Below, piece by piece: positions 3,113-52,852 of a DNA stretch of 64,000 nucleotides; the stretch's first letter is position 1; each line of letters begins with the position of its first letter. The notes under the pieces are model-generated. The model worked only from the letters and a program-made list of their open reading frames with translations. It did no database searches and was not told where the DNA came from. The position numbers and the translations under genes were made by a program. The DNA comes from a virus: positions 32,001 to 96,000 of IMG/VR virus record IMGVR_UViG_3300042896_000657. One strand, 5' to 3'.

Positions 3113-4738
3113 ATGAGTAAAATTATTAGTTTCGATAGAGAAGCAAAAGAAAAATTACAAGCTGGTATTGATAAAGTAAATAAAGCAGTATCAGTAACAA
3201 TGGGTCCTTATGGACGTAATGTATTAATTGAAAAAGAACATGGTCAAGTAACATCAACAAAAGATGGTGTAACGGTTGCTAAATCTATTACATTAGAAGA
3301 TTCTATTGAAAATATGGCAGCAACAGTAATTAAACAAGCAGCATCTAAAACAGTTGATGCAGCGGGAGATGGTACTACAACTTCAACAGTATTAGCTCAC
3401 GCTATTGCTTCTGGAGCATTAAGTACTACATCTTACCCATCAACAAATGCTACTCAGGTAAAACGTGGTATAGAGGATGCTGTAAAAGAAGTGGTTGCTG
3501 AATTAAAAAAGATGTCTATTGACATTACTGATGAAAAGCAAATTAAACAAATTGCTACATTATCAGCAAATGGAGATGAAGAAATTGGAAATCTAGTTAC
3601 CGAAGCATTAGATAGAGTTGGACGTGATGGTGTAGTTACAGTAGAGGAATCTCGTACTGGAGAAACTTCATTAGAAGTAGTTGAAGGTTTACAATTTGAT
3701 AGGGGATATAAATCTCCATATTTTGTAACTGACAATAGCACGATGCAAGCCGTATTAAATGACGCTTTAATATTGTTATTCAACGGTAGAATCAGTGCTG
3801 TTAAGGACTTATTGCCTCTATTAGAATCCGTTTCTCAACAAAATAAATCACTATTGATTGTTGCTGAGGAATTAGATGGAGAAGCATTAGCTACTCTAAT
3901 TGTAAATAAAATGCGTGGATCACTTAAAGTAGCTGCTGTAAAAGCACCTGACTTTGGAGAACGCAGATTGCATATTCTAGAGGATATGGCAACTTTAACT
4001 GGAGGTCAAGTTGTATCAACTGATAAAGGTATGAAGTTGGATAAATTCAATACAGATTGGTTTGGTAATGCACGTGTTGTAACTGTAGGTAAAGAAACTA
4101 CTACAATTGTTGATGGTAAAGGAGATGCAGATATAATTGAGACACGTATTCTAGATTTAAAACAACAATTAGATAATTCAAAATCACCATATGAAGTTGA
4201 AAAACTACAAGAACGTTTAGCTAAAATGGTAGGTGGAGTTGCAATTATTAATGTTGGTGGTGGTACTGAAATTGAAATGAAAGAGAAAAAAGACCGTTTA
4301 GACGATGCTTTGCAAGCTACAAAAGCTGCTCTTGAAGAAGGTATTCTACCAGGTGCTGGTGTTGCATTATTACATGCTAGAAAATCTATTAATTTAAAAG
4401 GTGAAAATGATAAAGTAAAAGGTGCACAAATTGTATTCCAAGCTTGTGCTACTCCATTTAAACAAATTTTAAATAATGCTGGAGAAGATCCTCAAGAATG
4501 GTGGGATAAAATTTACAATAATCATTTCTCTAGTATGGTACCAGAATTATCAACTGGAGAAGTAACAGATGCTTTCAAATCAGGTATTATTGATCCTACT
4601 AAAGTGGTACGTTGCGCTTTAGAAAATGCAGCAGCGGCCGCAGTAACACTATTAATGACTGAATGTGTAATATATGATAAACCTGAGGATAAAAAATCCA
4701 ATGGTGATGGAGTAGATATGTCACAATTTGGAATGTAA
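3113..4738 (+). CDS. groEL: Chaperonin GroEL
   Basis: TMGPYGRNV, TKDGVTVAK, AGDGTTT, GLQFDRGY, KAPDFGERR, GIIDPTKV. Confidence 0.98.
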   Translation: MSKIISFDREAKEKLQAGIDKVNKAVSVTMGPYGRNVLIEKEHGQVTSTKDGVTVAKSITLEDSIENMAATVIKQAASKTVDAAGDGTTTSTVLAHAIASGALSTTSYPSTNATQVKRGIEDAVKEVVAELKKMSIDITDEKQIKQIATLSANGDEEIGNLVTEALDRVGRDGVVTVEESRTGETSLEVVEGLQFDRGYKSPYFVTDNSTMQAVLNDALILLFNGRISAVKDLLPLLESVSQQNKSLLIVAEELDGEALATLIVNKMRGSLKVAAVKAPDFGERRLHILEDMATLTGGQVVSTDKGMKLDKFNTDWFGNARVVTVGKETTTIVDGKGDADIIETRILDLKQQLDNSKSPYEVEKLQERLAKMVGGVAIINVGGGTEIEMKEKKDRLDDALQATKAALEEGILPGAGVALLHARKSINLKGENDKVKGAQIVFQACATPFKQILNNAGEDPQEWWDKIYNNHFSSMVPELSTGEVTDAFKSGIIDPTKVVRCALENAAAAAVTLLMTECVIYDKPEDKKSNGDGVDMSQFGM

Positions 4739-30382: not shown

Positions 30383-30664
30383 ATGAGTTACGATTTAGCA
30401 AACAAGTATGCGGAATTTGAAATTCCTAAAGAACTTAAACAAGTAGCACTCTCCAAACAATTATCATTAAGCGCTACTAAAATGGTATTATTTTCAGACC
30501 ATGTTCAATTAAGTAATGATGATGTAGATTACTACATGGCTTTAAAACCTGAAAGAATGGAGGATGAAAGTTTTGAAGATTACAAAAACAGACGTGTATT
30601 TACAAAACAATTATTTAAACATAGAACATTAATATTTGATTATTCAATTTACGAAACAATTTAA
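30383..30664 (+). CDS. hypothetical protein
   Basis: 93-aa ORF after a promoter motif. Confidence 0.65.
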   Translation: MSYDLANKYAEFEIPKELKQVALSKQLSLSATKMVLFSDHVQLSNDDVDYYMALKPERMEDESFEDYKNRRVFTKQLFKHRTLIFDYSIYETI

Positions 30665-30685
30665 AAACAATTTAAAAACAAAGTT

Positions 30686-30967
30686 ATGAGAAATTACGAC
30701 GATAATGAACCAGTACAAGAAATGAGCACACCATCCCAATTAACCAGAAATAGTGGAGAAAAAGAATTTATCCGTCCAAGAATAGATTATTTAAGAGATC
30801 ATGAAATAAGTATTAGATTTTTAAGTTTAGGATGTATAGTTAGAGTTGGATGTAAAGAAATAGCATTCACTTCAATTGACGAAGCAATGAAAGAAGTTAA
30901 TGCTTACGTTACTAATCCAGAAGCATCAACAGATAAATACAATAAATTATTTAACGAACAGAAATAA
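30686..30967 (+). CDS. hypothetical protein
   Basis: 93-aa ORF. Confidence 0.65.
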   Translation: MRNYDDNEPVQEMSTPSQLTRNSGEKEFIRPRIDYLRDHEISIRFLSLGCIVRVGCKEIAFTSIDEAMKEVNAYVTNPEASTDKYNKLFNEQK

Positions 30968-30972
30968 AAATT

Positions 30973-31176
30973 ATGAGATATTATCAGGTAAAAGTTGAGT
31001 TTAAAACAGAAGACGATAAAGGTAAAATTAAACGCCAAAGTTATTTATATTTAGTAGATGCTCAATCAGTAACTGAGGCGGAAGCTAGAACAGTTAAATA
31101 TCTAAGAGAGCAATCAGAGGAAGATTTTGAAATTAAATCTGCAGGAGCTTCTAAAATTCTAGAAGTTTTACAATAA
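30973..31176 (+). CDS. DUF4494-like protein (Bacteroidota family)
   Basis: YLVDAQSVTEAEAR. Confidence 0.7.
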   Translation: MRYYQVKVEFKTEDDKGKIKRQSYLYLVDAQSVTEAEARTVKYLREQSEEDFEIKSAGASKILEVLQ

Positions 31177-31221
31177 TTTACATTTTTTAAAATTTACATA
31201 TATTTATATCAAATAATAATA

Positions 31222-31344
31222 ATGAAACGATTTAGCTTACATATTCAACTTTCGATACCCGCGATTAAAACGCAAGGGGAAGGCATGGTTTGTAATTGGG
31301 ATTATAATACCACAACAGGGTTAAAAGATACAGTATTGATATAA
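31222..31344 (+). CDS. 40-aa leader peptide of the tRNA operon containing all 20 amino acids (putative attenuator peptide)
   Basis: MKRFSLHIQLSIPAIKTQGEGMVCNWDYNTTTGLKDTVLI*; A-rich start context; followed by a terminator. Confidence 0.7.
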   Translation: MKRFSLHIQLSIPAIKTQGEGMVCNWDYNTTTGLKDTVLI

Positions 31345-31368
31345 ATAAGTAACTAAAATACATAATCG

Positions 31369-31404
31369 AAAGCCCTGATCCAAAAAGTCAGGGCTTTTTG
31401 TTTT
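31369..31404 (+). terminator. Intrinsic terminator between the leader ORF and the first tRNA
   Basis: AAAGCCCTGA-TCCAAAAAG-TCAGGGCTTT-TTGTTTT. Confidence 0.85.
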
Positions 31405-31436
31405 GTCACAATAAAAATTGTACATTTAAATATAAT

Positions 31437-31507
31437 GGTTAGGTTGATCAAGGTGGTCGGTAAGTCTGCAAAACTTACTATAGTAGGTTCGATACCTATC
31501 CTAACCT
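31437..31507 (+). tRNA. tRNA-Cys(GCA)
   Basis: Acceptor GGTTAGG/CCTAACC; TAAGT-ctGCAaa-ACTTA; U73. Confidence 0.9.
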
Positions 31508-31554
31508 CAGGTGGGTTTAATATTGTTCCCCGTGCGAAAAAAACAATATAAATT

Positions 31555-31627
31555 GGTACTTAAGCTAACTAGGTAGAAGCGATAGGTTGAAGACCTATAG
31601 GATAAGGTTCGATACCTTAAAGTACCA
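31555..31627 (+). tRNA. tRNA-Phe(GAA)
   Basis: GGTACTT/AAGTACC; ATAGG-ttGAAga-CCTAT. Confidence 0.9.
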
Positions 31628-31674
31628 CATGAAAAAACAATTTGAGATGCTTTAGGTTAATTAACCTAATCATC

Positions 31675-31851
31675 ATGAAAAAGCTAAAAAGAGCAGAAAC
31701 AAACAAAGAATACAATCATGCATTAAAAAATTATAAATGTTATTGTATGATATGTAATAAAAGGGCAGGAATATATAATGCATATTGTGGTCCAAAGAGT
31801 GAAAAGAAAAATAAAAACTGGAAACAGTATAGAAAAACAAAATGGAAATGA
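31675..31851 (+). CDS. Small basic Cys-containing protein inside the tRNA array
   Basis: MKKLKRAE..CYCMIC..C; the ATG at 31675 is a more plausible start than the TTG at 31642. Confidence 0.55.
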   Translation: MKKLKRAETNKEYNHALKNYKCYCMICNKRAGIYNAYCGPKSEKKNKNWKQYRKTKWK

Positions 31852-31898
31852 AAAAGTATAAACAGTAATACCCTCTAAGTAAACGAGGGAAATAAAAC

Positions 31899-31971
31899 GC
31901 CTTCGTAGCTTAATTGGTAGAGCAATATGCTTTTAACATATGTGGTGACAGTTCGATTCTGTCCGGGGGTA
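31899..31971 (+). tRNA. tRNA-Lys(TTT)
   Basis: ATATG-ctTTTaa-CATAT; normal D and T arms. Confidence 0.9.
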
Positions 31972-31976
31972 CAAAA

Positions 31977-32049
31977 GTAAGTGTAGCACAATTGGTAGTG
32001 CAGTAGTCTCCAAAACTAAAGGCTATAGGTTCGAGTCCTGTCACTTGCG
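31977..32049 (+). tRNA. tRNA-Trp(CCA)
   Basis: GTAAGTG/CACTTGC; ctCCAaa loop; G73. Confidence 0.9.
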
Positions 32050-32073
32050 CAAAAGATTAGTTCTTTGATTTAT

Positions 32074-32562
32074 GGGGCAGTCAGGAATTGACTGGGCAAA
32101 AAAAGTATAAAACAACAAGCAGTGCGATGAATGGTATAGCACTATAAAATGTACGTTCGAACAATAAATGACAACAAGTCAACTTTCTCTTTCGAAGATG
32201 CAATGTCTTTCGTAGGAGCAGATTTCGCAGTAGCTGCTTAATCTATTCAGGTGGTAACCAACCTAGGAACAGAATGATTACAAACAGAGCCACGTTCAGA
32301 ATGCTGCTCTAATACAAGTGAATTCGTCACAGTTGCTGGTAACAATGTTAAAATAGGAACCTGATGGTGGATTAGACCGCTATAAACGGTCGGCCCTTAC
32401 TGATCAATATAAGTTAGTAGAATAACGCTGCTGCTAGTATTCTTTAAATTACGTGGGAAGATGCAGCTCTCCCAATGTAGCTAACCATTATAGATCTAAG
32501 CTTGTAATAAATTGTTTTATGGCTGCTGCAACAGGACAAGGGTTCGAATCCCTTCTGCTCCA
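32074..32562 (+). ncRNA. ssrA: tmRNA
   Basis: 5' GGGGCAG..GGAATTGAC; 3' T arm plus CTGCTCCA with G3-U70; tag frame 32170-32241 reading (A)DNKSTFSFEDAMSFVGADFAVAA*. Confidence 0.92.
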
Positions 32563-32566
32563 CTAT

Positions 32567-32638
32567 AGTTCCTTAGTTCAATGGATAGAACACTTGACTA
32601 CGAATCATGAAATACAAGTTCGAGTCTTGTAGGAACTA
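32567..32638 (+). tRNA. tRNA-Arg(ACG)
   Basis: AGTTCCT/AGGAACT; ctACGaa loop. Confidence 0.88.
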
Positions 32639-32644
32639 CAAAAT

Positions 32645-32714
32645 GCCGTGGGTTGAGGTTTAACAACATTCTCTCATAAGGAATGTCAATTCGGTTCGAT
32701 ACCGAAACACGGTA
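32645..32714 (+). tRNA. tRNA with CAT anticodon (elongator Met or Ile2), atypical D arm
   Basis: CATTCT-ctCATaa-GGAATG; T arm TTCGG-TTCGATA-CCGAA. Confidence 0.7.
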
Positions 32715-32767
32715 CTATAAAATTGGATTATCGCGATAATAATCGTATATTGAATTATAATAAGAAA

Positions 32768-32840
32768 CGGGATGTGACAAAATTGGATACGCGCTCGCTT
32801 TGGAAGCGAGAGAATGCAGGTTCGACCCCTGCCATCCCGA
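32768..32840 (+). tRNA. tRNA-Pro(TGG)
   Basis: CGGGATG/CATCCCG; CTCGC-ttTGGaa-GCGAG. Confidence 0.88.
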
Positions 32841-32892
32841 CAAAAGTATTGTGAAGTACTATAAATTGATCTTTGACATCTAGGCTAAATTT

Positions 32893-32964
32893 ACCTCCAT
32901 AGTTTAATTGGAAGAATAAGGCCCTTCTAAGGCTTTGGTAGTGGTTCAAATCCACTTGGAGGTT
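32893..32964 (+). tRNA. tRNA-Arg(TCT)
   Basis: ACCTCCA/TGGAGGT; AGGCC-ctTCTaa-GGCTT. Confidence 0.88.
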
Positions 32965-32972
32965 CATAAAAT

Positions 32973-33045
32973 GGGCTGTTGGTATAGATGGCTAACACGG
33001 TAGATTTGCATTCTACAGTCCCCGGTTCGAAGCCGGGACGGTCCA
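32973..33045 (+). tRNA. tRNA-Ala(TGC)
   Basis: G3-U70 pair; GTAGA-ttTGCat-TCTAC. Confidence 0.9.
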
Positions 33046-33051
33046 CAATAT

Positions 33052-33123
33052 AGTTCCTTAGCTCAATGGAAGAGCAATGTCTTTACATGGCAAAGGTTAC
33101 AAGTTCGAATCTTGTAGGAACTA
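33052..33123 (+). tRNA. tRNA-Val(TAC)
   Basis: AGTTCCT/AGGAACT; ttTACat loop. Confidence 0.88.
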
Positions 33124-33178
33124 CCCACAGGAGGTATTTTCTCTACTTTGTCCTGCGTCCCAATCAAAGTAGTAATTT

Positions 33179-33250
33179 GCAGGTATAGCACAACGGTTAG
33201 TGCTCTGGTCTTCCAAACCGGAGATCTCGGTTCGAATCCGAGTATCTGCT
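33179..33250 (+). tRNA. tRNA-Gly(TCC)
   Basis: CTGGT-ctTCCaa-ACCGG; U73. Confidence 0.9.
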
Positions 33251-33259
33251 CAATAATAT

Positions 33260-33331
33260 TGACCTATGGTGTAATGGTTAGCACAACTGGTTTTGAGCCA
33301 GTTTGTTTAGGTTCGAATCCTAATAGGTCAT
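33260..33331 (+). tRNA. tRNA-Gln(TTG)
   Basis: TGACCTA/TAGGTCA; ACTGG-ttTTGag-CCAGT. Confidence 0.9.
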
Positions 33332-33415
33332 CAAAGATGAATAGATTACACAAGGTGTTAGTAGCTAGCTAAAGAGTCTCATTAGGTACACAAGTCCTAA
33401 ATTCATCTTTAAATT

Positions 33416-33503
33416 GGAAGATCCCAGTTGACTGAGGTACACGCTCTTGAAAAGCGCTAGGGGTCTGTGAGGGCCTGTAAGAGTTGGACTCTCTTATCTT
33501 CCG
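33416..33503 (+). tRNA. tRNA-Ser(TGA), atypical D/T loops
   Basis: GGAAGAT/ATCTTCC; ctTGAaa loop; long variable arm; G73. Confidence 0.75.
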
Positions 33504-33540
33504 CATTCGATGTGTTTGCCGAGCTAGATCGGCTTTATAT

Positions 33541-33615
33541 GGTGTTTATAGTGTTAATGGTTAAGCACGTCAGTTTGTGATTCTGATAGTTTGAGTTCGA
33601 ATCTCAATAAACACC
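33541..33615 (+). tRNA. tRNA-His(GTG)
   Basis: G-1/C73; ttGTGat loop. Confidence 0.9.
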
Positions 33616-33671
33616 CTCCTCCAATCCTGTGTCGGCTCGAGCAGGTGAAAGTTGAGGTATCGGGCCCTATT

Positions 33672-33757
33672 GGAAAGTAAAGCAGCCAGGGTTGCTGTCA
33701 CCGCCTGCTAAGCGAGTGGTACTTTAACGGTATGAATTTCGAGTATTCTACTTTCCG
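33672..33757 (+). tRNA. tRNA-Ser(GCT), atypical
   Basis: GGAAAGT/ACTTTCC; ctGCTaa loop; variable arm; G73. Confidence 0.75.
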
Positions 33758-33768
33758 CTGTATAATAT

Positions 33769-33849
33769 ATTGGAGTACCAGTGGAATCTTATACATTCTA
33801 TATCTGTAGTGGTATGTTGAAAACATGGGTTCGAATCCCATCTCCAATA
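33769..33849 (+). tRNA. Non-canonical tRNA-Ile(TAT)-like, no D arm before the anticodon arm
   Basis: ATTGGAG/CTCCAAT plus A73; GGAAT-ctTATac-ATTCT begins only 7 nt after the acceptor; T arm ATGGG-TTCGAAT-CCCAT. Confidence 0.6.
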
Positions 33850-33855
33850 CTATAT

Positions 33856-33933
33856 TGTGACGTATCCACCCTGTCCGATACACAGGAGTAAGGTAATTGG
33901 TTGAAAATATCGGTTCAAGTCCGATCGTCACAA
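33856..33933 (+). tRNA. Non-canonical tRNA-Ile(GAT)-like, no D arm before the anticodon arm
   Basis: TGTGACG/CGTCACA plus A73; CCTGT-ccGATac-ACAGG begins 7 nt after the acceptor; T arm ATCGG-TTCAAGT-CCGAT. Confidence 0.65.
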
Positions 33934-33943
33934 CTTTAAAAAT

Positions 33944-34015
33944 GGTCTATTGGTGAAGTGGCTATCATATTACCTTGTCACGGTAGAGTAGACGGATCGT
34001 AACCGTCATAGACCG
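33944..34015 (+). tRNA. tRNA-Asp(GTC)
   Basis: GGTCTAT/ATAGACC; ttGTCac loop; G73. Confidence 0.88.
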
Positions 34016-34025
34016 CTTAAAATAA

Positions 34026-34097
34026 GTTGAGGTAGCTCAGAGGCAGAGCAGGGTCCTGTTAAGACTCATGTCGAGATATCGTAATTCTCTCTCAACG
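34026..34097 (+). tRNA. tRNA-Asn(GTT)
   Basis: GGGTC-ctGTTaa-GACTC; G73. Confidence 0.88.
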
Positions 34098-34147
34098 CAA
34101 ATTAAATGTGTATGTCACAGCTAGTGTTCGTACATTGATAATAAGAT

Positions 34148-34281
34148 AGTCAGGTGGCGGAATTGGTAAACGCAAAAGCCAACTCGTAGTTGGAAGCGAG
34201 TTTAAATAAGACAGTCCGAAGTTCGTGGGTGGCATTAGCCTCTGGCACTTTGGCTTACAGGTTCGAATCCTGTCCTGACTA
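34148..34281 (+). ncRNA. tRNA-like scaffold RNA, copy 1
   Basis: AGTCAGGTGGCGGAATTGGTAAACGC, unique core, ACAGGTTCGAATCCTGTCCTGACTA. Confidence 0.75.
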
Positions 34282-34307
34282 CAAAAAATAAATAAAAATT
34301 TAAGATT

Positions 34308-34490
34308 ATGGATTGGATAGAAATTAAAAATCAAAAACCAAAAGATGATAGTTGGGTTTTGATAAAATCTTCTCTAAAGAACGTACCGAAATATGAGGTT
34401 TGTCATTATGGAAATAATGAGTGGTATATGCCTTGTTATGATGATGCATGTCAAGAGAAGGATATTATTAAATGGTCGTACATTGAATAA
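34308..34490 (+). CDS. DUF551-like small protein between two scaffold copies
   Basis: WIEIKNQKP..IIKWSYI. Confidence 0.6.
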   Translation: MDWIEIKNQKPKDDSWVLIKSSLKNVPKYEVCHYGNNEWYMPCYDDACQEKDIIKWSYIE

Positions 34491-34496
34491 TAATAC

Positions 34497-34645
34497 AGTC
34501 AGGTGGCGGAATGAAGGCACAAAGAGTAATAGTATGTGCTGGATATGGTAGACGCTAAGAAAGAAATTAACTTCGTATCTAAGTGGAAACACATGGTGGT
34601 ACACTAAAGCATAATTTCATGCGGGTTCGATTCCTGTCCTGACTA
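34497..34645 (+). ncRNA. tRNA-like scaffold RNA, copy 2 (extra hairpin inserted in the D loop)
   Basis: Same ends as copy 1; GCACA..TGTGC insert within the D loop. Confidence 0.7.
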
Positions 34646-34658
34646 CAAGATAATATAT

Positions 34659-34730
34659 TGCGGGGTAGAGCAGAGGTAGCTCGGAAGGCTCATAACCTTT
34701 AGGTCACAGGTTCGAATCCTGTCCCTGCTA
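34659..34730 (+). tRNA. Initiator-type tRNA-Met(CAT)
   Basis: TGCGGGGTAGAGCAG; unpaired U1/U72; GAAGG-ctCATaa-CCTTT. Confidence 0.88.
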
Positions 34731-34991
34731 CAAATCATAGGATTAATTACCCTATGACTGTCAGGTTCGAAACTGACGATTGATTATGGTGTATAGGTGC
34801 ACAGGATGATAAAGTAACAACTGGTAAGTAAGCCGGAAGAGAAATTGACACCAGGAATATGGTTCGAATCCATTTAAATCAACAAAAGTAGAAGTAAGTA
34901 TTGAGCAGGCACGCCGTAAAATAGATTCACAACTATCAGAGCTGTTTACTTTCAATATGTGAAAATGTGGGCATATTGACTACTTTTAATT

Positions 34992-35075
34992 GGGAGTATC
35001 GCACAGCTGGAAAAGGCGCAGCACTGTAAATGCTGTAAGTCGCATGACTTGGAGGTTCGAGTCCTTTTGCTCCCA
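34992..35075 (+). tRNA. tRNA-Tyr(GTA)
   Basis: CAGCA-ctGTAaa-TGCTG; variable arm AAGTC/GACTT. Confidence 0.9.
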
Positions 35076-35085
35076 CTAATATAAT

Positions 35086-35157
35086 GCTCCTGTCGTCTAA
35101 TGGTTAGGATATCTCACTTTCTATGAGATGATTTCGGTTCGAATCCGTGCGGGAGTA
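35086..35157 (+). tRNA. tRNA-Glu(TTC)
   Basis: TCTCA-ctTTCta-TGAGA. Confidence 0.88.
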
Positions 35158-35250
35158 CAAAAGTAATTAGGTGGGCGTAATGAGGAACGGTTTCCAAGTC
35201 CAATAGAATGGTTGCTTATCCTGTTCGAGTCAGGCCCTAATTACTTACTT

Positions 35251-35322
35251 GCTCTCAAAGCATTGCAGGCGATGCACCTGACTTGTAATCAGGATAAATC
35301 GGTTCGATTCCGGTTGAGAGCT
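35251..35322 (+). tRNA. tRNA-Thr(TGT)
   Basis: GCTCTCA/TGAGAGC; CCTGA-ctTGTaa-TCAGG. Confidence 0.9.
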
Positions 35323-35404
35323 CAAAAAAGGTAAAAGAAATTTGGCCTAGCAAAACAACGTTTGTATATTGATAATATAGAAACAAATACGTTCTTTGAA
35401 AATA

Positions 35405-36283
35405 TTGTTATCCATTTAAGTTACATTCGACGCGAAACAGTCCGGCTGCCGATAAGATTGTAGGTTGATAAATAACACTCGGCGGCCTATAGTCGTTAAA
35501 TAAACCGTGAAAGCGGTATAAAGTGAATTAGTTTGACTGAACTAGTTTGCGCATCGTGAGATGTTAAGTAGGCAAGCAGGATATCATTTATCCTTTAGTA
35601 CCGAGGGTGACACTGTAGGGAAAGTGGATAGATGATTAGGCGATGTGGGTCGTCTGATTGAGCTCGGAAGAGCAATAAGAATAACCTGTAGAATATATGC
35701 AAGAAATATACCTCCAAGTATGTAATTGCGTTATTCAATATAAGAGAAATCTTAAAATCGAAAGGTAAGATGATGTACAGGTGGTGCTGTTATTGTCCTC
35801 AAAATTAATCTACCAAGGTTTTTATTGAGAAGATTTCTTAAAGTATGGAGGTAGGGATACTTCAGAGAGTAGTCGAGTATTTTGTTGTTCAAAAGATAAC
35901 AAAGCTTAGGGTAAGCCACTACTTTCATAATCCATAAGTCTAAACTAAATTTGCTACTATGATGCAATATCTAAAATCAAATTAAGCTTAAGCGCTTACC
36001 AGCTACGGACGAAAGATGCTTACATAGTACTGGGTTGTCCAGTGCCATTTAAGACCGCAAGTCAAGAATGATTCTTTTGAAAGACTTATAGTACCGCAAG
36101 TACGAATCAGGCTCGCAAGCTTGAATAGGGGTGAGTAGGAGGAGAGTAGTCCAATACAAGTAGCTCTAAGAGTGGTTCACTTAAATAACCAGCATTGTCA
36201 GAGTAGGGATCAAAAGTTCCTGGATAAGAGAAGAATAAATAATGTCTCAAAAGCTTTGACGTCAAGACTGTAATCTCAGGTCT
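35405..36283 (+). ncRNA. Large structured ncRNA, probably GOLLD-class
   Basis: About 880 nt with no credible ORF; GC-enriched; many GNRA-capped hairpins (GCAA, GAAA); own promoter motif and boxA; embedded among phage tRNAs; ends approximate. Confidence 0.6.
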
Positions 36284-36289
36284 TTTTAT

Positions 36290-36369
36290 GCCTCGGTGGT
36301 GGAATTGGTAGTCACGCTGGCTTTAAGCGTCAGTCCGAAAGGGTGAGGGTTCGAGTCCCTCCTGGGGTA
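36290..36369 (+). tRNA. tRNA-Leu(TAA)
   Basis: CTGGC-ttTAAgc-GTCAG; short variable hairpin CC-GAAA-GG. Confidence 0.88.
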
Positions 36370-36376
36370 CTAATAT

Positions 36377-36521
36377 TGTAGTGTGATGAAACTGGCAGAC
36401 ATTGCCCTCCTGTCTCGGGGGTGAGGATCAACTGATAAACGTAGGATAGATGGGTTGACCACAAGCTAGCAATGTCCTACAGCTAAAGTCCTCGTGAGTG
36501 GTTCGAATCCCTCCACTACAG
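36377..36521 (+). tRNA. tRNA-Asp(GTC)-like with a ~70-nt structured variable-arm insertion
   Basis: TGTAGTG/CACTACA plus G73; CCCTC-ctGTCtc-GGGGG; GAGGAT..GTCCTC stem enclosing GTAGGAT..GTCCTAC. Confidence 0.65.
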
Positions 36522-36529
36522 CAAAATAT

Positions 36530-36632
36530 AGTCAGGTGGCGTAATGGTAACGTGTCACCCTCCAGGTTGAGATAACAGCTAATGGCACTCTGTATGATAA
36601 AGAAGATACAGGTTCGAATCCTGTCCTGACTA
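36530..36632 (+). ncRNA. tRNA-like scaffold RNA, copy 3
   Basis: AGTCAGGTGGCGTAATGGTAACG..ACAGGTTCGAATCCTGTCCTGACTA. Confidence 0.75.
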
Positions 36633-36653
36633 CAATTGATTAATGGAAACTTT

Positions 36654-36727
36654 ACCTGGGTGGCGGAACTGGCAGACGCAGCGGCCTTAGAAGTCGTAAG
36701 GTGAGGGTTCGAATCCCTCTCTGGGTA
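36654..36727 (+). tRNA. tRNA-Leu(TAG), lacking the long variable arm
   Basis: GCGGC-ctTAGaa-GTCGT; variable region only AAGGT. Confidence 0.8.
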
Positions 36728-36746
36728 CTATATTAAATTTAATGTT

Positions 36747-37253
36747 ATGGAATTTAAAATTTTATCTTCTGGAAAACCTGTTATAGATATAATCTCATAC
36801 ATTAAAGATTATATTAAACAATTTGAAAATACTCACTTCATCGAAGTAATTATTGGTTCAGATTCACAAAACAGAAAGCGTAAAACACAATACGCTACGG
36901 TTATATTACTACATAAAACTGATTATGATTCAGGTATTGGAAAAGGTGGACATGTTCTATATAAAACAGAATCATCAGATAGACCATACACCATCACAGA
37001 ATCTGAGCGTAAAGACCACAGATCAAAACGTTTACTAAATGAAGCCTGGAAGTCAATCGAGGTAGCTGAAATGCTACGTACTAATGGAATAAACGTTGAT
37101 GTTATTGATTTAGATATGAATCCTGATCCTAAATATAGATCAAATGATGTACTTGCTCAAGCTACTGGTTGGGCAGAAGGAATGGGATATAGAGTAAGAT
37201 GTAAACCTGATGCTATGTCTGCTTCATATGCTGCTGATTCATTAGTTAAATAA
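36747..37253 (+). CDS. RNase H-like YkuK/DUF458 family protein
   Basis: IIGSDSQ, RLLNEAWKSIEVA, DLDMN, KPDAMSASYAAD. Confidence 0.8.
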   Translation: MEFKILSSGKPVIDIISYIKDYIKQFENTHFIEVIIGSDSQNRKRKTQYATVILLHKTDYDSGIGKGGHVLYKTESSDRPYTITESERKDHRSKRLLNEAWKSIEVAEMLRTNGINVDVIDLDMNPDPKYRSNDVLAQATGWAEGMGYRVRCKPDAMSASYAADSLVK

Positions 37254-38599
37254 AATATTTTAGTCAGGATTATTTTATTATATTTCTATATATGAAAAGA
37301 AATAAAATACCATTTATTCATCCTAACCAATATGCTGCATTCGATCAAAATATGAAAGTATTTGCAGGATATAAGGATGGTTATCCATTATGGTCTAATA
37401 ATGCAAATGATTTTAAGTATATAAATGATACATCCCATCCTAAAGCACTTAGAGATTGGTTTCCTGAAAAACAAATTGAATTAATTAAAATATAAATTAT
37501 GGCTGCAAAAAGCAAAAATAAATACGATGTATTTAATTGGATTAAAGATAAAGTTATTCCATCATGTAAAACACTCCAACAAAGTGTGGTTTGTGAAAAA
37601 TTAATTCACAATTTTCAAGAAGTATATAATGACTACGAATTAACTAGACTATTAATGTTAGACTGTGTATATTATGAAAATGTTTAAATTATTTAAGAGA
37701 GTGGATCCAATATTCGTTGTTGGGTTCCCTATGACTATAAAAGGAGATCAAGTAGATTCATTTCATGAACAATTAATGAAAGAATTGAAAGGATATCATG
37801 TTCTAGCATATAGAGATAATACAATAAAAGCTATTAAATTTGAATGCTTTAATTGTGAAATTAACGAAATTGAATTTAATGAATTGAAAGAAAAATTATA
37901 TAAAACCGTTATCAATAATGAAAGCAATATTAGAGTTTAATCTACCAGAAGATAATATAGAATATGAATTAGTAAATAATGCTGGAAAAATGCATTCAGT
38001 TTTATGGGATATGGATCAATGGTTAAGAGCACAATACAAATATATGCCAGATGAAGAATATAATGAAGTTGCATATAATACATATTTAAAATGTAGAGAA
38101 CAACTACGTGAATTATTAAATGAAAAAAATATAGATTTATAAATAATATAAATTATGAAACTAAGCAATAAACGTAAATTTTTATTCTGTTATAATCATT
38201 TTACAGAAATGATTACTATTACTTATAAAGATTCTACATTTGATAAACAAAGATTAAGACATAAAGATTGGATGCCTAGGGTGTTTGAATGTAATAGTAG
38301 TGAAGTAATGGATAATATTAGATATTATAGAAAGAAAAATCCTAATGTTTTTATATCTAAAATAACTTAAACCAATATAAATAATTTAGATAAAACAATA
38401 GAAAGTTATGAATAAAGAAGATACATATTCAATACCTATTTACGAAAATGGGGTGAAGACAAAATGGACAGTTGATGGTATAATTGGTGATGAGAGATAT
38501 TTTAAATTATTAGAGTTGGGTAATGGAAAAGATTTACCCGATATGATTCACACGACAACGAATGGTATGATACTGAAAAATCAAAAACAATAAATAAAT

Positions 38600-51733: not shown

Positions 51734-52852
51734 ATGGAAAATAATAATTCAGTTTGCTACGTTGCAAAAATAAATGAAATTAAATCTATTGAGGGTGCTG
51801 ATAATATTGAATTAGCAGTAATTGGAGGATGGAATTGTATTACTAAAAAAGGAGAATACAAAGTAGATGATTTAGTAATTATAGCTACTACTGATGCTAT
51901 TATCCCTCAAAATCTATCAGACGCAATGAATGTAACTAATTACTTACGTAAAGGTGGACGTGTACGTACTGTTAAATTAAAAGGAGTATATAGTGAATGT
52001 TTAATCATCCCTAATAAATTTATATTTACAGAATATTACAAAGAAGGAAGCGATATGATGGATAAATTAAGTATCCATAAATACGAACCACCGGTTAAAC
52101 AAATTCAATTAGCATCAGGCCGTAAGATTAAATATAAGGATAATCCTAACTTCCATGTATATTATAAGTTCCCTAATTTAAAGAATGTTGATGGAATGTT
52201 TACTGTAAATGATATGGTAGAAATCACCCGTAAGATTCATGGTACTAATGCTCGTTATGGTATTGTAAAGAAAACTAAATTATCATTATTAGATAAAATT
52301 AAAAAATTCTTTGGAAATAAATGGATTGAATATGAATTTATTGTTGGATCCCATAATGTTGAAAAAGGATCTGAATCACAAGGATTTTATGATACTAACG
52401 TTTGGTATGATATTGAAAAGAAATATAATATTAAATCTAAATTATGGAATTGGGTTAGAAGACATAACCCTATAGATATAGGTGAAGGTATAGTATTATA
52501 TGGAGAAATATATGGTCCAGGTATCCAAAAAAATTATGATTATGGATTAGATGAGATTAAATTTGCTGGGTTTGATATAAAGATGAATGGAGAATATCTA
52601 AATGTAATCAGAGCTAATTTTATAATTACTCAACCCTTATCACTACCATATGTTGAAATATTACATAGAGGTGTATGGTCTCAAGAGATACAAGATAAAT
52701 TCACATTCAATAACTTCATTCCAGGAACTAAAGTACCTGAAGAAGGAATTGTAATTAAACATGTGTCTGGTGAACGCCAAAGAATAGCTAAAGTCATTAA
52801 TCCAGACTATAGTATATATAGTGAAAAACATAATGTTGGGGATAGCCACTAA
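51734..52852 (+). CDS. RNA ligase, DRB0094-like, with N-terminal OB/tRNA-binding-like domain
   Basis: IEGADNIEL; ligase motifs KIHGTN, GEIYG, FDI, EGIVI, AKVI. Confidence 0.88.
   Translation: MENNNSVCYVAKINEIKSIEGADNIELAVIGGWNCITKKGEYKVDDLVIIATTDAIIPQNLSDAMNVTNYLRKGGRVRTVKLKGVYSECLIIPNKFIFTEYYKEGSDMMDKLSIHKYEPPVKQIQLASGRKIKYKDNPNFHVYYKFPNLKNVDGMFTVNDMVEITRKIHGTNARYGIVKKTKLSLLDKIKKFFGNKWIEYEFIVGSHNVEKGSESQGFYDTNVWYDIEKKYNIKSKLWNWVRRHNPIDIGEGIVLYGEIYGPGIQKNYDYGLDEIKFAGFDIKMNGEYLNVIRANFIITQPLSLPYVEILHRGVWSQEIQDKFTFNNFIPGTKVPEEGIVIKHVSGERQRIAKVINPDYSIYSEKHNVGDSH

Follow-up and report, generated by a model that had tools for sequence, protein, structure and literature searches.

Leader-peptide attenuators are found in amino-acid operons and include trpL, hisL, pheL and leuL as well as the multivalent thrL and ilvL. 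Such classical attenuators have also been the subject of modelling (PMC1183508). Here we analyze a comparable arrangement in a 64,000-nucleotide (nt) stretch of viral DNA (IMG/VR record IMGVR_UViG_3300042896_000657, positions 32,001 to 96,000), called the window below and used for all coordinates, in which a 40-codon open reading frame (ORF) and an intrinsic terminator stand directly before the only tRNA array of a phage genome. An earlier note, written from the letters of the window alone, had proposed that this unit is an attenuator which samples all 20 amino acids and gates the array. Comparative tests support the attenuator interpretation overall, through coverage retained in diverged leaders, conservation of one switch segment at the RNA level and the differing stems of Cellulophaga phage phi4:1. 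On balance we think it probable that the unit is a ribosome-mediated transcription attenuator heading the array and that the full mechanism is the one proposed below.

As in trpL-type attenuators, a short ORF follows directly after a promoter, here a predicted one, an intrinsic terminator precedes the regulated genes, and the regulatory codons match the product of those genes. A second predicted pairing reaches into the ORF and would preclude the terminator, and the position of the ribosome is predicted to select between the two structures. Unlike trpL-type attenuators, this unit is located in a phage and would control tRNAs, transfer-messenger RNA (tmRNA) and GOLLD RNA instead of enzymes. It also lacks single-codon runs and instead has one or two codons for each of 23 decoding classes; 24 such classes were counted, one per amino acid plus extra ones for the split Leu, Ser and Arg boxes and for Ile-ATA. 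The window type has no evident anti-antiterminator (1:2) pairing. Among Rfam leader models the best match was Thr_leader RF00506, at 27.7 bits against a cut-off of 55 (E 0.055), and it covers mostly the terminator (31333-31403); no other Rfam leader matched, and no T-box was found in 30500-38000 at E up to 5. The proposed unit shares with T-boxes the sensing of tRNA state and a terminator/antiterminator switch, but a T-box lacks an ORF and recognizes a single uncharged tRNA by direct binding.

Among looser parallels is toiL, the multipurpose upstream ORF (uORF) of E. coli topAI-yjhQ, where one short ORF likewise reports many translation stresses and stalling at different positions refolds the downstream RNA. 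Unlike the phage leader, toiL works through a ribosome-binding site and Rho-dependent termination and responds to antibiotics (PMC12121999); its composition is not one that samples all tRNAs, and its targets are not tRNA genes. Another is the trn operon of Anabaena sp. PCC 7120, an inducible long tRNA array (PMC8421152). It is an extra, horizontally spread array turned on under impaired translation, as we propose for the phage; unlike the phage unit it is governed by the repressor protein TrcR, according to an abstract that describes no leader peptide or attenuator (PMC10272220). In agreement with the earlier note, which knew of no described equivalent, our literature searches found no account of leader peptides before tRNA arrays; for leader-peptide attenuation that controls phage tRNA genes through a leader sampling nearly all decoding classes, only these looser parallels were found in print. 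To our knowledge, the regulation of phage tRNA arrays is almost unknown. Reasons proposed for the arrays themselves, still debated, are codon compensation, host shut-off and escape from tRNA-targeting defences (PMC10264068, PMC11464382).

The leader ORF and its predicted switch

The unit lies on the plus strand of a 113,980-bp genome with 29% G+C and was compared with six related DNA loci (L001, L133, L009, L156, L188 and L286) and eleven further distinct peptides, recovered by using the neighbouring protein, the leader peptide, DNA patterns and a downstream ORF as anchors. The eleven peptides (P0002-P0007 and P0009-P0013) are known as protein only, so that codons and switch segments were compared among the DNA loci. 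At the 5' end of the unit is a promoter-like site, P1 (31177-31208), consisting of TTTA (31177-31180), an 18-nt spacer and TATATTTA (31199-31206). It is the best match in a sigma-70-type scan, the window, L133 and L009 share its 20-nt core without any difference, and the same 20-mer also occurs 7-24 nt 5' of the ATG of unrelated phage genes. P1 is therefore a predicted promoter, from which RNA would be expected to begin about 10 nt before the leader ATG. The leader ORF (31222-31344; 40 codons, ATG start, TAA stop) begins 13 nt past the conserved P1 motif, and the six relatives also have an ORF directly after a promoter-like site. An A at position -3 before the ATG was found in all five leaders read there.

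The strong terminator noted earlier downstream of the ORF is present (31368-31404), with its stem starting 24 and not 25 nt past the stop codon. It comprises segment 3 (31368-31379), a loop, segment 4 (31387-31398) and a T-run, and its stem has 12 pairs, 5 of them G-C, with a predicted energy of -17.0 kcal/mol. Segment 2, the 5' strand of the proposed antiterminator, is CAGGGTT at 31316-31322 (codons 32-34), and RNAfold reproduced its suggested pairing with AGCCCTG at 31371-31377. The interior (31323-31370) contains the inner helices GAT/ATC (31327-31329 with 31365-31367) and GTATT/AATAC (31333-31337 with 31357-31361) as well as the stop codon (31342-31344). In the window the antiterminator folds at -13.2 kcal/mol, a stability equalled by 3% of interior shuffles. 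Across loci the two structures are of comparable stability, -10.6 to -16.8 kcal/mol for the antiterminator and -15 to -17 kcal/mol for the terminator. The predicted minimum-energy fold is the antiterminator for the nascent RNA before the terminator 3' arm is made, and the terminator for the full transcript, in all homologs. On this strand the genome has just three copies of the sequence CAGGGYT.

The effect of ribosome position was modelled by masking a 30-nt ribosome footprint and refolding the RNA. The antiterminator stayed free (P >0.8) with the A site at codons 2-27, which is compatible with the earlier suggestion that stalling in the early codons permits it, and was blocked once the A site lay at codon 28 or beyond, up to about codon 38. 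Codon 28, at the edge of this sensing zone, is also where the last new decoding class is added; the proposed sensing part, codons 2-28 (31225-31305), holds all 20 amino acids and the 23 decoding classes. The earlier statement that a ribosome at the stop codon masks the antiterminator was not reproduced by this folding: once the A site reaches the stop, a 30-nt footprint leaves both segment 2 and segment 3 uncovered.

We propose that RNA started at P1 would have its first 40 codons translated, with transcription and translation coupled in these hosts as we assume. As the polymerase advances, CAGGGTT could pair with AGCCCTG and block the terminator hairpin (31368-31398). A ribosome following closely would cover CAGGGTT or sit in the antiterminator loop, with its A site between codon 28 and the stop, while the terminator 3' arm is made; the terminator would then form, leaving only a leader RNA of about 190 nt. 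A ribosome delayed in codons 2-27, or one never loaded, would allow the antiterminator to form and transcription from P1 to continue into the tRNAs, tmRNA and GOLLD RNA. Shortage of almost any tRNA, whether of host or phage, would raise transcription of the array and plentiful tRNA would lower it. The response would be nearly universal because the sensing part samples 23 of the 24 decoding classes, many of them with rare codons. The phage would, in this reading, probably raise its own tRNAs whenever ribosomes are short of any tRNA.

Coverage in the window, its relatives and phage phi4:1

The ORF does contain all 20 amino acids by codon 28, as had been reported. The shortest stretch with all 20 is 26 residues long (31228-31305) and is the shortest in the six frames of the 114-kb genome, where the runner-up has 30; a stretch of 26 residues or less arose in one of 100 random genomes with matching dinucleotide make-up. 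Given the amino-acid frequencies of this phage, the probability of finding all 20 in 28 residues is 1.4e-5. Different codon boxes of the split families are used (TTA and CTT, AGC and TCG, ATT and ATA), so that AGR alone of the 24 decoding classes is absent. Over the 30 codons between the ATG and segment 2, the exact P of 23 classes under the codon usage of this phage is 1.4e-5; under a null that follows the base composition of the locality it is about 1e-5, at most 2e-5. The maximum among 24,729 28-codon stretches from the long ORFs of the phage was 19 amino acids or 21 decoding classes.

The claim that uncommon codons are used also holds, since AGC, TCG, CCC, GCG, ACG, GGG and GGC have relative synonymous codon usage values of 0.08-0.25. 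Leader codon commonness is in the lowest 0.3% of 27-codon stretches, and in four-fold families the leader takes rare G- or C-ending codons. Each decoding class is represented by one to three scattered codons, and tandem or clustered runs of regulatory codons are absent. Structure within the ORF was considered as a cause of the GC-rich codons and ruled out (z +0.2 to -1.9 against shuffles). A tRNA remnant, hinted at by the motif TTCGATACC, was likewise ruled out by the lack of any Rfam or ARAGORN match inside the ORF.

Since the class scheme was set after the window had been seen, the relatives provide the fair test of coverage. Three diverged leaders keep a short ORF with near-complete coverage before segment 2, as the earlier note had suggested looking for: L133 with 24 of 24 classes (exact P 2.4e-6), L286 with 24 of 24 (1.9e-5) and L156 with 23 of 24 (6.8e-6). 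L156 is a 32-codon ORF that has about a third of its residues in common with the window, and L286 is a 47-codon ORF with a third or fewer and an N-terminal part unlike all others. Within the close family, a lost residue tends to reappear elsewhere: E20Q is paired with Q9E, which regains a singleton Glu, and a Cys lost at position 24 is matched by another gained three residues earlier. The expectation that homologous loci keep the all-20 composition is borne out in part, the ORF being kept in all homologs compared and coverage being incomplete in L009, L188, P0011 and P0013.

The unit stands directly before the tRNA array in all DNA loci while the upstream genes differ, the frame is open in all seven (window included), and a terminator is present in every relative. 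Segment 2 lies 90-115 nt from the ATG and, in six of the seven loci, exactly 26 nt from the stop despite differing tail peptides. L133 has three separate one-codon insertions in frame, leaving the ORF open, and L009 preserves Val-Cys through synonymous changes. Between the window and L133, nonsynonymous (dN) and synonymous (dS) divergence over codons 1-30 are 0.077 and 0.41 (dN/dS 0.19), similar to a neighbouring gene (0.081 and 0.57; dN/dS 0.14), while the tail after the switch segment is nearly neutral (0.63 and 0.82; dN/dS 0.77). Segment 2 reads CAGGGYT without exception in six loci; L286 has TAGGGCT, which can still pair through wobble. The codon in which the segment begins specifies Thr, Ser or Ile, with Pro in a variant seen only as protein, and in L156 the segment lies in another reading frame and overlaps the stop codon. 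Because it is kept across these amino-acid changes and the frame change, segment 2 is, as judged by sequence comparison, conserved at the RNA level.

Outside this family, the cultured phage phi4:1 (NC_021788.1; locus L282) carries a 38-nt promoter-like repeat in two identical copies, each followed by a leader-terminator unit (2393-2560 and 3335-3535 of that locus). The second unit overlaps the annotated gene gp075, whose annotated TTG start falls inside the repeat. In unit 1 a 22-codon ORF follows the promoter-like stretch before the first tRNA block; its terminator stem differs from that of the window, and a copy of the 3' arm of that stem, GGGAGGT, lies inside the ORF. Unit 2 has a 27-codon ORF with a probable GTG start, a third distinct stem and the upstream copy CTAGGGG, and its nascent RNA is predicted to fold into an antiterminator; in leader 1 a large 5' structure sequesters segment 2. 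Upstream segment and terminator thus change together across units, as required of an antiterminator. The covariation that the earlier note had asked about is therefore seen across the phi4:1 units, and within the window family only conservation is seen.

The phi4:1 leaders also appear matched to their own tRNA blocks. Block 1 encodes tRNAs for Pro, Glu, Gln, His, Leu, Leu and Arg, and all six isotypes occur in leader 1 (P 1e-3). Block 2 encodes Ala, Lys, Ile, Gly, Met, Asp, Thr, Val, Arg, Met and Tyr, and all nine non-Met isotypes occur in leader 2 (P 6e-4). The window leader may be pan-amino-acid, and not a subset, because a single leader there heads a single array of nearly all isotypes.

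The only protein relatives of the leader are 40-47-residue ORFs of uncultured phages. DNA and peptide searches of GenBank phages found no relative of the leader, a protein-based scan of genome contigs found nothing, and short DNA pattern searches returned chance matches only. When 596 billion bases were searched for the segment 2 plus terminator pattern alone, more than 120 matches turned up across all bacterial phyla; L188 was the sole relative among them, the others being chance matches. Flavobacterium phage immuto, the closest cultured relative by GroEL, carries only four annotated tRNA genes, of which one scores below the Rfam threshold, and lacks a comparable leader. A separate observation concerns P0012 (4,799 residues), in which 20 separate stretches matched the leader profile (E 3.5e-11); this protein probably has repeats that resemble the leader in a short motif.

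The tRNA array and its genome setting

The array (31437-36728, plus strand) is the sole tRNA array of the genome and contains 20 tRNA genes of 18 isotypes called by ARAGORN, a tmRNA, a GOLLD RNA and further tRNA-like units. Its first gene, tRNA-Cys, begins at 31437 as noted before. The earlier reading of tRNAs for all 20 amino acids plus tmRNA stands for the tmRNA; by ARAGORN the tRNAs cover 18 amino acids, with no Ser and no canonical Ile called. All 18 isotypes are present in the leader. Rfam adds the tmRNA and two more tRNA-like matches. No second leader-like ORF with a terminator was found inside the array.

Downstream of the leader terminator is the second promoter-like motif of the earlier note, which we confirm but place differently: instead of 31405-31430 it is better read as TTTG (31397-31400), a 20-nt spacer and TACATTTA (31421-31428). 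This site, P2 (31397-31428, plus strand), overlaps the terminator T-run and ends 9 nt short of tRNA-Cys, and its arrangement TTTG-20 nt-TATATTxx recurs in L001 and L133, which suggests a promoter function. Promoter-like repeats also occur in L156. The array probably has its own basal transcript, supplied by P2. With a conserved P2 on the 3' side of the terminator, gating would mean modulation of a strong upstream promoter and not an all-or-none switch. In L009, L188 and L286 the first tRNA begins 3-12 nt past the T-run, which leaves no space for P2, and read-through seems necessary there.

The tmRNA (32074-32565) was found by Rfam at 64.5 bits and was not called by ARAGORN in the window; L001, L133 and L002-L005 have ARAGORN-called tmRNAs with differing tag peptides. 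The GOLLD RNA (35865-36282) is a full-length match to RF02032 at 262 bits, lies just before tRNA-Leu and would be co-transcribed with the tRNAs. At the place matching 33617-33943 of the window, relatives carry Ser-GCT, Ser-TGA, Ile-GAT and Ile-TAT, and the window has a weak Rfam tRNA match at 33769-33849. Further tRNA-like units occur at about 34148-34282, 34497-34646 and 36530-36632, and at about 3510-3660 in L002-L008. They combine an acceptor-like stem (AGTCAGG...CCTGACT) and a normal T arm with large internal insertions; in related phages, comparable units some 160 nt long are found after a small membrane ORF. In one clade a tRNA-Phe-like gene lies 3-12 nt past the terminator (L009 3478-3552, L188 about 2008-2085, L286 about 1370-1445); it has an unusual T loop with G at the usual T54 position, is missed by ARAGORN and scores 42 bits with Rfam in L009.

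Just 5' of P1 is a gene for a 67-residue protein of the Pfam family DUF4494 (30973-31176), which in this group of phages is usually the gene next to a tRNA array on its upstream side (L001-L009 and L188); in immuto a gene annotated 'YcfL' occupies the matching position. The phage also encodes a GroEL-type chaperonin (3113-4738) and an RNA ligase (51734-52852; Pfam RNA_ligase with a PHA02142 OB-fold domain) that may be relevant to tRNA repair. The closest match of the phage GroEL is that of immuto, at 59% identity, and a Flavobacteriia host is therefore likely.

Alternative explanations and implications

One alternative is that the leader is a generic sensor of translation or coupling, such as pyrBI-type coupling or a multipurpose uORF, signalling no more than that ribosomes have loaded and are keeping up, with near-complete coverage as a by-product. 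A uORF responding to many translation stresses is known (PMC12121999), any translation failure would cause read-through when there is no 1:2 pairing, and coverage is ordinary in L009 and L188, if these are functional at all. We nevertheless consider such a composition-blind sensor unlikely, because it would not lead one to expect 23-24 of 24 classes in four leaders that have strongly diverged (each with P about 1e-5 to 1e-6), the regain of lost residues elsewhere in the peptide, or phi4:1 leaders that list the isotypes of their own tRNA blocks. Another possibility is a stand-alone gene for a small protein, in which P1, the 40-residue ORF and the terminator make a peptide acting in trans, P2 drives the array, and CAGGGTT is kept for the sake of Thr-Gly-Leu. 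The purifying selection on codons 1-30, the conserved P2 and the strong terminator closing the unit are all consistent with this, and the ORF is called by gene callers and listed by JGI as a hypothetical protein. The tail of the peptide evolves nearly neutrally, though, and segment 2 is kept across Thr, Ser and Ile and across the frame change with stop overlap in L156. The L286, L156 and window peptides differ almost completely while retaining composition and geometry, the unit always precedes the tRNA array though the upstream genes vary, and the 40-residue product matches no Pfam family at E up to 0.01; we rate this explanation as rather improbable. That the leader is a non-coding or small RNA, or a chance ORF with RNA signals conserved for processing, stability or protein binding, seems very improbable to us. 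It is in line with the conservation of segment 2 and the terminator as nucleotides, a pattern that is weak evidence alone because of its many chance matches. It is at odds with three separate insertions that are each one codon long, a frame open in seven DNA loci and in eleven further peptides, Val-Cys preserved through synonymous changes and a dN/dS far under 1; moreover, the ORF interior is no more structured than shuffles, and no Rfam family matches at threshold.

Several points weigh against the attenuator as proposed. The 24-class scheme was chosen with the window in view, and coverage before segment 2 falls to 16 amino acids in L009 and 17 in L188, with 19 in P0011 and 17 in P0013 over the whole peptide. 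The leader has no AGR codon, yet the array encodes tRNA-Arg(TCT), and it holds Ser codons, yet no Ser tRNA is called. With so few codons per class, sensitivity to a mild tRNA shortage may be low compared with the runs of classical leaders. No conserved 1:2 anti-antiterminator pairing onto segment 2 and no pause hairpin is evident in the folds of the window type, and an untranslated leader would for want of that pairing read through. A ribosome at the stop would occupy the antiterminator loop, so that exclusion would have to be steric or depend on tight timing. Terminator and segment 2 show no compensatory changes within the window family. Finally, the array need not rely on read-through, because P2 is conserved in three lineages (window, L001 and L133).

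If the attenuator reading is taken further, the leader may be a universal gauge of the tRNA pool: a 28-codon test message of rare codons, sampling 23 of 24 classes, that turns the array on when any tRNA is limiting, for example through host anticodon nucleases, and off when supply is restored. We put this stronger idea forward tentatively, as slightly less likely than not. Such a gauge would represent the pan-amino-acid extreme within a broader group of leader attenuators whose codons match the phage tRNA genes behind them. The idea is directly testable at the bench because the cultured phage phi4:1 has the same architecture. If true, it would mean that phage tRNA genes are under demand-driven control, would extend classical attenuation from amino-acid biosynthesis to tRNA supply, and would offer a natural design for an all-tRNA sensor.

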